From the IMG/VR virus record IMGVR_UViG_3300045596_000094, positions 205,039-269,038 of that record: a DNA stretch of 64,000 bases; one strand, given 5' to 3'. This document shows positions 2,402 through 5,547 of this stretch, piece by piece; within the stretch, counting starts at the first letter, position 1, and each line of letters begins with the position of its first letter. The stretch comes from a virus. Taxonomy: Duplodnaviria > Caudoviricetes. Both the position numbers and the translations under genes were made by a program. Under the pieces are notes generated by a model that worked only from the letters and a program-made list of their open reading frames with translations, was not told the origin of the DNA and did no database searches.

Positions 2402-2935
2402 TTATGCTTCCACTAATTCCTTAACCGTTTTAGTTTTAGCAGATGCGAGGGTGTAGCTCTTCAGATACTTTTCAGTAATCTCCAGATGACGACTACCCAA
2501 ACTATTACCCCAGTCGTATTTCGGTTGACGGGGTGTTGCTACAAAAGAATCCTGATAAGAAGCAACATCAAAAGGAACTTCTATTGTAATAGCCCCACCA
2601 GGCAACCCTTCAATAACAACCAAAGCCGAAGCTGCAGTAGGCGTCCCGAATTGTTCTGGCTCTTCACCAACCTTACCATTCTTACGCCACTGATTCCAAT
2701 ACGGGAGTTCAGGACGAACGTAATTGAAACGTAGTGATGCTTGAACGAAAGGTGCGTTTGGTGCGTAATCTACGTCTTCACGTAGATAAACTGCGAAGTG
2801 TTTCTTCGCAGTAATGTTGGCTTGCATTTCTTCTTTTAAAGACTGGATTAAAGGGAGAACTGCTTCGCCATAAATCTTTTCAATGATCTTAGTAGCGTTA
2901 TACGTTACTAGGTTCACATGGGTTTGTGTTGCCAT
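2402..2935 (-). CDS. Hypothetical protein (177 aa)
   Basis: ORF with phage-like codon usage in an operon arrangement. Confidence 0.75.
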   Translation of the reverse strand: MATQTHVNLVTYNATKIIEKIYGEAVLPLIQSLKEEMQANITAKKHFAVYLREDVDYAPNAPFVQASLRFNYVRPELPYWNQWRKNGKVGEEPEQFGTPTAASALVVIEGLPGGAITIEVPFDVASYQDSFVATPRQPKYDWGNSLGSRHLEITEKYLKSYTLASAKTKTVKELVEA

Positions 2936-3710
2936 GATCCGTACCTTCAGTTTCTGTAGACTTGTCTATAGGATTTGCCTTAGCATTTTGTTTTACGCTA
3001 GGCAACATAGACTCACCCTTTAACCAATGTAATTTCAAACGTTCTGGTGAAATTTCTTGCCAACGCCAAATCGCATTAATAGCGACATTACCCGCTTTCA
3101 CACGCACACAAGGAACAGTGGTTGCAACATTAATTACTTTTGTTGGATCTTTCGGATTGATCACTTGGTGATTTAAACACTCGTACCAACCATAGATAGT
3201 TTCACGATTAGTTTGCGCTTTAATAGCGATGCGTTCACCTTTGAAGATACGTTCAACAGGAAGAGCATCATAACGCCAATTCGGATCTTTATCGGTTTCT
3301 GGTTCGCGTTCAGCCAACGCTTCACGAGGGATAGCAGAGAAGTTATTGCGGATACCGATAATGCCATTTTGCAAAATAAATTCCACAACATTATCTAGAT
3401 TACGTTCTTGCAAAACATGGTATTCGAAATTCTCAACAAACTCATGTGTGTGCGCTACCGTTTTGATGTGCGCGTTTCGTAACGGAGCCAGTAAATTGAC
3501 GATAGCGGTTTTACGCCCTTCTTCATCTAGCTCCTCACTTTTCATGATGTTGATCATGCCATCAGTTACAACGTTCCAAGCAGCACCCAAACACTGCATT
3601 ACAAAATCCGCGTTAGAAACCGGCGGGAAATAATCTTTTTGTTCTTCTGATACGTTTGGAATTTCTTTAAAATCAGCGTCTACGATTTCTTGAGCTTTAG
3701 GGTCTAACAT
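2898..3710 (-). CDS. Hypothetical protein (~270 aa; start re-called at MLDPKAQ)
   Basis: AAGGA Shine-Dalgarno before ATG 3710. The longer ORF-track start crosses a terminator and poly-T run. Confidence 0.75.
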   Translation of the reverse strand: MLDPKAQEIVDADFKEIPNVSEEQKDYFPPVSNADFVMQCLGAAWNVVTDGMINIMKSEELDEEGRKTAIVNLLAPLRNAHIKTVAHTHEFVENFEYHVLQERNLDNVVEFILQNGIIGIRNNFSAIPREALAEREPETDKDPNWRYDALPVERIFKGERIAIKAQTNRETIYGWYECLNHQVINPKDPTKVINVATTVPCVRVKAGNVAINAIWRWQEISPERLKLHWLKGESMLPSVKQNAKANPIDKSTETEGTDHGNTNPCEPSNV

Positions 3711-3766
3711 GAGAGAGGTTTCCTTATTAATCGAGTTTAAACCATAGTAATACATGGCAATACAAA

Positions 3767-3816
3767 AAAAAAATAGATAGAACAATATTGACCACATCGC
3801 CGAAGCGATGGGTCAA
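3767..3816 (-). terminator. Intrinsic terminator with UUCG tetraloop
   Basis: Minus strand reads ttgacccatcgc-TTCG-gcgatgtggtcaa, followed by a T-rich tract ending in T9. Confidence 0.85.
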
Positions 3817-3819
3817 ATT

Positions 3820-4356
3820 GGTTTGTTCACTACTTCGTTCAGTTACCCCTAACACCTTACATATGGCCACTATGTCTAGAACATAGTTACTGTGTATCTT
3901 AGGCATTCATACTTTCTCAGTGTAGGGTTGATCTGTTGTCTTCTAAAAGACTATATAGAAAGAGATAACTCTTTTGTTCCCGCATTTAAGGGATTGGCTA
4001 TTTATTAAGTTTTTGAAGTAGTAAGTCGTTATCTATTTTAGATATCAGTTTGACCTATACTCGTCCATACGAAATCCTCTTTTCCGCGGTACTGAGTATT
4101 TCAAAAGGTAAGCAGAAATCTTTAAATAAATGCTCCACTATTACAGGATAATAATGGAGTTTCTCCAAAGGGAAAGGTGTGTAGAACAACTCAAACATTT
4201 CACAGATACTGGGGAAGCTATAACATTCTTCCCTAAACTCATCTGCGATTGATCTAACCCCCACACCTTCAAACACCTCGGAGAGCGCATCTAACAATCT
4301 AGATGTGATACGACCACTACCGAGTACGACTACTTGGATAGTGGTTTACCTGCAAA
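3820..4356 (-). ncRNA. Candidate large structured non-coding RNA (or highly structured 3' UTR), ~530 nt
   Basis: No credible ORF in an otherwise gene-dense genome. Multiple nested helices: 4313-4319/4339-4345, 4262-4269/4174-4181, 4212-4217/4228-4233, 4015-4022/3829-3836, 3920-3927/3847-3855, 3869-3875/3881-3887. Ends at the UUCG terminator. Confidence 0.55.
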
Positions 4357-4824
4357 TTATTTCAATAATTCAGCAGCAGCTTCAGCAATACCAGATTTGA
4401 TACGGTTAATTGCAGCACCATTTTTAGTTGTTTGTTTAACAGTAGTATAACCAACAACTTCTTTGATTGTCGCTTCTTGACCTTTTTCTTTAGGTGGGAT
4501 AGAAACTTGACCCACACGTTTAACAGTAACGTCAACAACAGAACTACCGATTTTAGTAGAAGCATTTACGTGAGAGAGTTCAGCATTTGTTTTTAATACG
4601 TCAAGACCTTTTGTACCGCCCGCATGTACAAAAGCTTCTTTATAAAGAACGTCGTGTTTATGTACGCCATCTGCTTGTTCAACACCAGTCTCACCAAATG
4701 TTTCTGGCAGTGTACCATTGTAGGTATCTTTGTCAGAAGCAAAAGTAAGTTCAGAGCCAGTTACTTGGAACTGTTCTTGAAGAGATGCAGAAAGATCAAG
4801 GTAAGAAGTTTTAGCGTTAGACAT
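4357..4824 (-). CDS. Hypothetical protein (155 aa), probably highly expressed
   Basis: GGAG RBS; strongly biased codons (GCT/ACT/GGT/AAA); upstream partial early-promoter motif at ~4934-4976. Confidence 0.85.
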   Translation of the reverse strand: MSNAKTSYLDLSASLQEQFQVTGSELTFASDKDTYNGTLPETFGETGVEQADGVHKHDVLYKEAFVHAGGTKGLDVLKTNAELSHVNASTKIGSSVVDVTVKRVGQVSIPPKEKGQEATIKEVVGYTTVKQTTKNGAAINRIKSGIAEAAAELLK

Positions 4825-4989
4825 CGTGTCTACTCCAGTTTGAGATTTTAGAGAGTTTAATAAAACGTGTTACAATTACATAAGAACTACCACGCCATTT
4901 ATTTTTAACGTGATAGTTGATATTTACATTACACTACATAAGGATAGTGTAGATGTATAATTTGTTTATCTTTGAATTTGGATATTCTT

Positions 4990-5547
4990 TTACCACAAAC
5001 TACGAAGATTCACCGCTTGCGGATTGCCAACATGCATTTGGGTTCCTTGTTGGATTGCAGCGCGTTGTTTAGCAGCTTCAATCAATAGAGAATTGTGTTT
5101 GAAAGTCATCTCTACGATTTTGGCAAATGTTGTTTCTACACCAAAGAATGATCCAGAGATAGCTTGAAGCAGTTCCTGACGGGGAACACGATTCAGGTCA
5201 TAGAACAAGGCATTTTTAGTCACACACTGGATATCAGTATCTTCGATACTTTTGACAATGTCTGATGGGAATGGTGACCAGCGTTGATTTGAACATACCA
5301 GCCACGGCTCATGCGACGATTGTTCTGATTTCGGTAATACAAGAATAGCTAGGTGTTTAAACTTTGCTGTGAGGTGTTCCATTAGTGAAAAGAACGTAGC
5401 TTGGAGAGCCGGTTCAAAATCCACAGTATAGTAACCAATCACACAACCGTCTTCTTCAGAATATAGGCGAATTTCAGCAGCACCTGAGAACTCCATTACC
5501 GCTTTGTCTGGGTTAATGCTTTGTTTAATAATGTCTTGTACGTTCAT
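4990..5547 (-). CDS. Hypothetical protein, paralog family member 1
   Basis: Motifs IRLYSEEDGCVIGYY and TAKFKHLAIL...W...W are shared with 5953..6417 and 6457..6965. Confidence 0.8.
   Translation of the reverse strand: MNVQDIIKQSINPDKAVMEFSGAAEIRLYSEEDGCVIGYYTVDFEPALQATFFSLMEHLTAKFKHLAILVLPKSEQSSHEPWLVCSNQRWSPFPSDIVKSIEDTDIQCVTKNALFYDLNRVPRQELLQAISGSFFGVETTFAKIVEMTFKHNSLLIEAAKQRAAIQQGTQMHVGNPQAVNLRSLW

Follow-up and report, generated by a model that had tools for sequence, protein, structure and literature searches.

A conserved structured RNA, preceded by a small gene, is predicted in the genome of a jumbo phage represented by the IMG/VR virus record IMGVR_UViG_3300045596_000094. The window that was analysed is a stretch of 64,000 nucleotides (nt; positions 205,039 to 269,038), the final 64 kb of this 269-kb record, which has direct terminal repeats. 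All genes around the locus are carried by the minus strand, and a gap of ~645 nt that is poor in open reading frames (ORFs) separates a gene for a protein of 155 amino acids (aa) from the next gene. Comparison with related loci indicates that the 3' half of this gap specifies a real structured RNA of about 190-270 nt on the gene strand, conserved and covarying, and that the 5' half holds a fast-evolving protein-coding gene, ORF2. The RNA is a candidate for a family new to Rfam, and ORF2 is a small gene not annotated before. On the minus strand the following order is well supported: the 155-aa gene, a hairpin (Hs) with a non-AUG start codon, ORF2, a hairpin (H0), the core RNA, a terminator, a promoter-like element, and the next gene.

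A first-pass annotation, made from the letters of the window alone, had seen an ORF-poor gap behind the 155-aa gene and had read it as a single non-coding unit of ~530 nt with two structured domains. The gap was confirmed (from the 155-aa gene, 4357-4824 minus, to the next gene), and so was the proposal of an undescribed conserved structured RNA behind a codon-biased gene on the same strand of a chimallin-encoding jumbo phage. The single unit had to be given up: what had been called domain 1 is ORF2, conserved and under selection, and the RNA is limited to ~190-270 nt.

Related loci were collected by way of the 155-aa protein (contigs L002-L011) and through ORF2 (L026-L028), one of the loci coming from a metagenome scan. 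About ten lineages carry the cassette of ORF2 and RNA, of which roughly eight are independent. In all of these close relatives (L002-L011, L026-L028) a gap of 630-700 nt lies behind the homologue of the 155-aa gene. From ~4090 to 3790 the sequence is conserved at the nucleotide level about as well as the neighbouring protein gene. Within the main clade the identity of the core is 72-85%, and that of ORF2 is far lower (42-57%).

The core RNA (3824..4012, minus strand, ~190 nt) consists of three hairpins, H1 (3979-3992) with an invariant UUAAAUGY loop, H2 (3959-3974) and H3 (3938-3951), and a long interrupted arm (3839-3931) that is capped by H7 (3870-3886). A covariance model of the core, R1, was built from seven sequences and contains 182 positions and 40 pairs. 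It matches every relative once, always on the gene strand, and finds a single copy in the whole phage genome. In an alignment of 12 sequences 93.6% of the core cells are paired, compared with 35-52% when the partners are slid, and 14 of the 40 pairs show changes on both sides, compared with 1-5 in the slid controls. The observed covariation score was reached by none of 500 shuffles. Across the seven model sequences the junctions CUGAGAAAG, UGUAAGGUG and CUGAACGAAAG vary little or not at all; the partial match in L006 departs from them.

The strand of the RNA can be read from its pairs. About 10% of the paired core cells are G.U, one U.G is kept in all nine sequences that have letters at that pair, and several positions alternate between G.U and A-U. 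These pairs and changes would be C.A mismatches on the other strand, so the RNA is assigned to the minus strand, which the first-pass annotation had also favoured from its G.U wobbles. The orientation of the terminator and of the genes agrees with this assignment. No conserved frame was found in the core, and the 59-aa frame of the window at 3727-3906 has no counterpart in the relatives.

H0 (4065..4089, minus strand) is a hairpin of 6-7 base pairs (bp) with a Shine-Dalgarno (SD)-like loop, AAGRGG, that overlaps the last codons of ORF2; it was missing from the first-pass annotation. Its stem has seven different sequences in eight lineages, with 97.9% of the cells paired and at most five pair types per position. 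The pairing of the arms of H0 and Hs was counted with a script that compared arms from the same lineage with arms from different lineages. H0 arms pair at 5.9 of 6 positions within their own lineage and at 3.2 of 6 across lineages. Wherever a lineage has the AAG of the loop, this triplet is in frame with ORF2; L006 carries UUG instead. CsrA-type GGA loops were considered for H0 and rejected as inconsistent across lineages.

At the 3' end of the RNA a hairpin with a UUCG loop and a U-rich tail (3788..3816, minus strand) is predicted to be an intrinsic terminator and has the features expected of one. Its stem shows compensatory changes in the relatives, and a U-rich run follows it directly in L002, L005 and L010. 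A simple terminator scan missed it in the window because the stem has a bulge. A conserved unpaired stretch (3818-3838) lies immediately upstream of the hairpin. Behind the RNA and terminator of L010 lies a different sequence, without the element of T-run and TATTAC-TATGG that is found beyond the terminator in the window; the RNA therefore belongs with the upstream genes and not with the downstream gene.

Folding energies were compared with those of dinucleotide shuffles. The gap folds much better than chance, as the first-pass annotation had anticipated, with z = -5.56 for the minus strand and -6.70 for the plus strand. For the 5' half (4055-4359) z is -4.9 and for the 3' half (3790-4057) it is -4.96. 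Control values came from 36 random 300-nt coding segments of the phage (mean z -0.93, standard deviation 1.4, minimum -4.4), and the 155-aa gene itself has a z of -0.15. The helices that the first-pass annotation had listed (4313-4345, 4287-4306, 4133-4159, the arm 4162-4284, 4015-4024/3827-3836 and 3869-3887) are present in the minimum-free-energy (MFE) fold of the window. Their conservation is another matter. Of the helices of domain 1 only the hairpin 4313-4345 is conserved; the large ones share neither position nor sequence between lineages. The 10-bp helix 4015-4024/3827-3836, thought to close domain 2, is specific to the window; it is absent from the RNAalifold consensus, with ~4 bp shared on inspection. 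Covariation behind homologous genes, also expected by the first-pass annotation, was found for H0, Hs, the core and the terminator in the close clade, but not in the distant relatives, where the cassette is absent.

The covariance models of Rfam 15 gave no match in the window at gathering score and none at E <= 10 within 3600-5000. For the loci of six relatives the lone match was a spurious SprD on the opposite strand that was driven by the terminator (24.5 bits against a gathering score of 100). ARAGORN found no tRNA or tmRNA. The absence of tRNA, tmRNA, RNase P and intron features noted in the first-pass annotation is borne out. A group I intron was rejected, as no group I model matched at E <= 10 and the cassette sits after the stop codon of the 155-aa gene. 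A likeness of UUAAAUGCGGGAAC to the P4 region of group I introns was also rejected, as its pairing was inconsistent across lineages on inspection. The cassette lies outside any gene because the 155-aa gene ends where its insertion-free homologues end (L017 with 150 aa, phiKZ gp186 and Ea35-70 gp172).

ORF2 (4055..4339, minus strand) comprises 94 codons and a TAG stop, with a predicted AUC start at 4337-4339. A stop-to-stop open frame of 88-105 codons is present in every lineage, beginning at most 15 nt from the upstream stop, and such a frame is rare in shuffled sequences (6-77 of 2000 per lineage). The nucleotide identity of 42-57% is near the noise of global alignment; that of the 155-aa gene is 72-79%. 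The two closest pairs with countable changes show an excess of synonymous changes. L002 and L028 differ by 15 synonymous and 7 non-synonymous changes, a ratio of non-synonymous to synonymous rates (dN/dS) of 0.12 (p = 1e-5). The dN/dS is 0.34 for L007 and L008, and all three changes between L002 and L003 are synonymous. The pooled binomial p is 2e-7. Insertions and deletions preserve the frame between an N-terminal V-I-L-G motif and the C-terminal K-R-G codons, and gene callers annotated ORF2 in four lineages. By these patterns of substitution ORF2 is a protein-coding gene that evolves fast under coding selection. The first-pass annotation had taken the frame at 4055..4297 to be untranslated; the frame is in fact 4055-4339, and the coding selection on it contradicts that view on evolutionary grounds.

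The products of ORF2 share the N-terminal motif V-[VI]-[IV]-L-G and a C-terminal K-(R)-G and are otherwise 14-47% identical. No Pfam, PHROG or ESM Atlas family was found for ORF2. Its mRNA region is unusually stable in five of eight lineages (z <= -3.4), the exceptions including L005 (z 0.1) and L006 (z -1.5), and its large helices differ in position and sequence between lineages. The region serves as a caution that a very negative folding z-score does not prove a stretch to be non-coding.

The start of ORF2 lies in Hs (4313..4345, minus strand), a hairpin that begins ~10 nt past the UAA stop of the 155-aa gene. Hs folds in all lineages (eight that were folded, plus L026 and L028) with a dG of -16 to -24.5 kcal/mol. 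Its stem varies between lineages and its apical sequence is conserved; the arms pair at 6.9 of 7 positions within a lineage and at 2.95 of 7 with arms of other lineages. The start codons assigned are AUC (the window, L010 and L011), AUU (L007 and L008), UUG (L002, L005, L026 and L028) and GUG (L006). AUC, AUU or UUG always stands six codons before a conserved Gly, and in the distant L006 the GUG stands three codons before it. Between the preceding stop and the start of ORF2 are one to five sense codons, none of which is a usual start. The frame of ORF2 relative to the upstream stop is 0, 1 or 2 depending on the lineage, with an intervening stop, and fusion to the 155-aa protein by readthrough or frameshifting is therefore excluded. 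A bypass like that of T4 gene 60 was rejected as well. There is no matching Lys codon in the ORF2 frame (window, L002, L005 and L007), and a test for matching take-off and landing codons gave only a coincidental GGU/GGU in L006.

By its sequence the phage is a phiKZ-type jumbo phage of the nucleus-forming kind, and its genes include one for a homologue of chimallin, the nuclear shell protein of phiKZ (E=9e-22). Its S80 prohead protease is 37.0-37.4% identical to those of the Erwinia Agricanvirus phages and 38% identical to that of Xanthomonas phage Xoo-sp14, and the synteny of the S80 protease with the virion RNA polymerase (RNAP) beta subunit is as in Agricanvirus and Xoo-sp14.

The 155-aa protein (4357..4824, minus strand) is assigned to the phiKZ gp186 family by its profile. 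The profile of the 155-aa family matches PHIKZ186 (E=1e-7), Ea35-70 gp172 (E=4e-22) and Xoo-sp14 gp179 (E=3e-15). The gp186-family gene adjoins the S80 protease in Ea35-70, Xoo-sp14 and the window; its position in phiKZ differs. Six close clusters of the protein were found in metagenomes at 53-79% identity, together with 29 distant homologues. DNA and protein searches with the 155-aa gene and the gap gave no match in the phage collection or IMG/VR. The AF2 model is confident (pLDDT 90.7), and its structural matches in BFVD are uncharacterised jumbo-phage proteins only (from KTN4, Phabio, Psa21, Noxifer, PhiEaH1 and RSF1). A fold search of the PDB with the protein returned nothing significant. 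A likeness to levivirus coat proteins was dismissed, as it came from weak PDB rows with E ~0.2 and template modelling (TM) scores < 0.2. The strong codon bias that had been noted for the gene was upheld: it is the strongest among the genes tested, with a codon score of 0.74 and a GC content at third codon positions (GC3) of 0.18. In phiKZ, phiKZ186 is an early transcript, and its knock-down with antisense strongly lowers plaque counts (preprint, bioRxiv 10.1101/2024.07.31.605949).

Upstream of the 155-aa gene, at 4850-4960 (minus strand), all relatives have a conserved TACACTATC-N-TTATG motif and then a conserved hairpin with an A-rich loop. This motif and hairpin are probably the promoter or 5' leader of an early operon.

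In the sequences searched, the cassette has so far turned up in a single clade only, whose phages are uncultivated, encode chimallin and come from bioreactor sludge and wastewater. L017 and L018, which represent a more distant metagenomic relative at 42% identity, have the same gene order with only ~100 nt at this place, made up of a short hairpin, a terminator and a T-run. Likewise ~95-120 nt with a terminator follow the homologous gene in L017/L018, in phiKZ (gp186) and in Xoo-sp14 (gp179), without ORF2 or the RNA. When R1 was run with filters off against the loci of phiKZ, Ea35-70, Xoo-sp14 and L016/L017, it gave only noise (E > 2). As the distant relatives have a terminator only, the extra ~550 nt are taken to be a clade-specific cassette. 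The first-pass annotation had considered a ribonucleoprotein; an obligate one of the RNA with the 155-aa protein is unlikely, since the gp186 family occurs in phiKZ, Xoo-sp14 and L017 without ORF2 or the RNA. The roles as a decoy, scaffold or sponge that it had also suggested are speculative. A pattern scan of 185,579 prokaryote genomes gave only one chance match, in a 258-kb contig of a 'Bacteroides' metagenome-assembled genome, which the covariance model rejects. The RNA of L026/L027 (L026:2818-2991) is a mosaic: Hs, the ends of ORF2, H0 and H1-H3 are of the L002 type, and of the L007 type are the long arm and H7, the latter in a third variant. This points to recombination within the cassette.

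Two gaps in other genera were also noted. In Ea35-70 an unannotated gap of 253 nt follows gp172 (NC_023557.1 139845-140105; L020:1945-2205), with an MFE of -74 against -45 kcal/mol and z -6.97. R1 finds only noise there (7.9 bits, E 2.9). The gap is conserved only within Agricanvirus, at 85-100% identity, which is too similar for a covariation test. A different structured 3' RNA may follow the gp186-family gene of other genera. In Xoo-sp14 an unannotated gap of ~900 nt lies between the prohead protease and the gp186-family gene (MT939492.1 about 165691-166591; L013:7730-8630).

We favour a reading in which the RNA forms a stable non-coding module that closes an early transcript at its 3' end, behind an ORF2 translated by reinitiation, and acts on a conserved partner; we give this reading about even chances of being right. 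A clade-specific cassette would have entered between the early gene of the gp186 family and the gene that follows it. The covarying hairpin after the 155-aa stop would enclose the conserved non-AUG start (AUC, AUU or UUG), and ORF2 would be translated from it, the most likely mechanism being termination-reinitiation coupled to the intense translation of the gene upstream. The common transcript would then end in the ~270-nt structured RNA of H0, the 190-nt core and the intrinsic terminator. The RNA, whether as part of the transcript or processed from it, may act through its invariant single-stranded loops on a protein or on the translation machinery. The invariant loops in the midst of covarying stems favour a specific fold or binding surface over a generic stabiliser.

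A candidate tertiary contact, which we put forward as a hypothesis, may be formed between H0 and H1. The loop of H0 is complementary to the invariant (U)CCCUUA that makes up the 5' arm and loop of H1, and, of all sites in the RNA, the H1 site forms the most stable duplex with the H0 loop in five of eight lineages (in L005 it is within 0.2 kcal/mol of the best). This pairing could give a fold that translation of ORF2 remodels, since ORF2 is read through H0. A bolder version is improbable in our judgement: ribosomes that finish the gp186-like protein would reinitiate on ORF2 and break an SD/anti-SD-like kissing contact of the H0 loop with the CCCUUA of H1, and so would switch a trans-acting RNA that engages the 30S subunit or another conserved factor of host or phage early in infection. 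If true, a translation-gated module of this kind would be a new class of ribonucleoprotein or ribosome-directed RNA.

Several observations weigh against the proposed module. The alignment behind the covariation statistics of the core was fitted to the model and represents about eight independent lineages, and H1 and helix 4 are invariant, so that covariation is uninformative for both. It is likewise uninformative on the contact of H0 with H1 because both motifs are almost invariant, and in L007/L008 another site pairs better with the H0 loop. In most lineages ORF2 has no clear SD sequence or canonical start codon; its codon adaptation is weak (0.12), and AF2, given eight sequences, models it with low confidence (pLDDT 43). 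A search of the phage's own genome for sites complementary to the conserved single-stranded motifs found none. Sequencing runs give no more than a weak hint of RNA abundance. In two wastewater runs labelled RNA-Seq, 100%-identical contigs cover just 3848-4059 and 4041-4200 out of the 6 kb compared. One DNA run is similarly patchy, the short 100%-identical contigs of all three runs lying within 3848-4258. These contigs show neither ends, strand nor level, and the runs labelled RNA-Seq may be DNA.

The main rival is that the RNA is a purely cis-acting 3' untranslated region (3'UTR) with no role in trans, which would stabilise, terminate or insulate an abundant early mRNA, for instance by protecting it from 3' exonucleases or RNase E, or by keeping it apart from the next promoter. 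We consider this fairly unlikely, while taking it seriously. The RNA does sit between the coding part and the terminator, insertion-free relatives carry a simple hairpin and terminator at the same place, and the structured 253-nt gap of Ea35-70 (z -6.97) suggests that this gene may generally require strong structure at its 3' side. However, a terminator alone suffices in phiKZ, Xoo-sp14 and L017, 190 nt with three hairpins and a branched arm far exceed what termination needs, and invariant loops and junctions with covarying stems are typical of a specific fold or binding surface. The same junctions, CUGAGAAAG, UGUAAGGUG and CUGAACGAAAG, within a compact multi-helix fold could belong to a novel ribozyme, self-cleaving or with some other catalytic activity, by which the early transcript is processed at its 3' end, and small ribozymes are common in phage intergenic regions. 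No Rfam ribozyme family matches, however, and no catalytic core can be recognised, and we hold this explanation to be quite improbable.

The position of the cassette exactly between two conserved genes, its restriction to one clade, the fast evolution of ORF2 and the recombination seen in L026 would also fit a selfish insertion, remnant or active, in which an intron-like or mobile small ORF and its RNA persist because they are hard to lose, without benefit to the phage. Against it stand the single copy per genome, with only a chance match in 185,579 prokaryote genomes, and the purifying or structural selection on both ORF2 and RNA. The cassette has no endonuclease, reverse transcriptase or transposase domain, does not lie inside a gene, and matches no Rfam group I or II intron or ribozyme at E <= 10, all of which makes this origin unlikely. 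Least probable of all, and very doubtful, is the original picture of one ~530-nt non-coding RNA in which the open frame of ORF2 is a by-product of constraints on the RNA. It would explain why structure is as strong in the ORF2 region as in the core (z -4.9; <= -3.4 in five of eight lineages), why half of the lineages have no canonical start codon, and why the AF2 model is poor. Yet the frame is open in 10 lineages at near-saturated nucleotide identity (42-57%), indels keep the frame, synonymous changes are in excess (p=2e-7), and the large helices seen there differ from lineage to lineage.

No description of this RNA was found in the literature. Small RNAs (sRNAs) derived from the 3'UTRs of bacterial and phage transcripts resemble it in that they follow the last stop codon and share the terminator of the operon. 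They often carry a seed just upstream of the terminator hairpin, and the conserved unpaired stretch at 3818-3838 is at that place in the window RNA. The window RNA differs from them in being much larger and more elaborate (190-270 nt, 7-8 helices), and a search for complementary sites in the phage genome found none. ROOL and GOLLD, large structured RNAs associated with phages, and the raiA-like RNAs of bacteria also have many helices, invariant loops and covarying stems, with a function likewise unassigned. The window RNA, which is phage-borne as well, matches none of these Rfam families in sequence or structure, measures about 0.2-0.3 kb against their 0.6-0.8 kb, and is embedded in the 3' end of an mRNA, whereas they stand alone.

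For the start of ORF2 there are two precedents. In MS2 the coat gene is coupled to the replicase and lysis genes through a start codon sequestered in a hairpin, and infC has an AUU start. As in MS2, the start of ORF2 lies inside a stable hairpin that begins ~10 nt past a heavily used stop, and like that of infC it is a non-AUG codon, here AUU, AUC or UUG without a good SD sequence. The coupling of ORF2 differs from that of MS2 in that it is suggested by geometry alone.

In jumbo phages, ONT-cappable-seq has revealed sRNAs of <250 nt that are mostly 5'UTR-derived and arise by premature termination, for example upstream of phiKZ gp182/201phi2-1 gp277 (PMC11512511). These sRNAs are, like the RNA described here, conserved structured RNAs of phiKZ-like phages attached to a protein-coding transcription unit. 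The locus is different: the window RNA is at the 3' end of the operon of a gp186-family gene, behind an extra ORF, in one uncultivated clade. The structured RNAs of nucleus-forming jumbo phages are almost unexplored, those reported being short and mostly 5'UTR-derived sRNAs. A complex covarying RNA is here tied to the operon of an early gene family that is important for plaque formation by phiKZ. With its ~550 nt, the cassette is a compact system in which to study the translation and stabilisation of early jumbo-phage transcripts or their use against the host.

Beyond the terminator and outside the RNA, a promoter-like element precedes the next gene (3739..3773, minus strand). It consists of a run of 9-10 T, CTATTG-like bases and then TATTACTATGGTTT, and stands ~30 nt upstream of where the next gene starts. 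The element occurs once in the window, is invariant in seven relatives and is absent behind the RNA in L010. Early promoters of phiKZ, which are used by the virion RNAP, have a T-rich block and an extended -10 element (PMC8244752), and the layout of the element at 3739-3773 is similar. The idea that TATTACTATGGT is a promoter repeated across the window was rejected, as it occurs once. The next gene probably starts at the ATG at 3708-3710 rather than at 3797, since the relatives start there, behind a conserved AGGA-type ribosome-binding site. The mechanically listed ORF of 299 aa (2898-3797) spans the T-run and the promoter-like element. Most likely the gene itself covers 2898-3710 and encodes 270 aa; in the relatives it encodes 260-295 aa.

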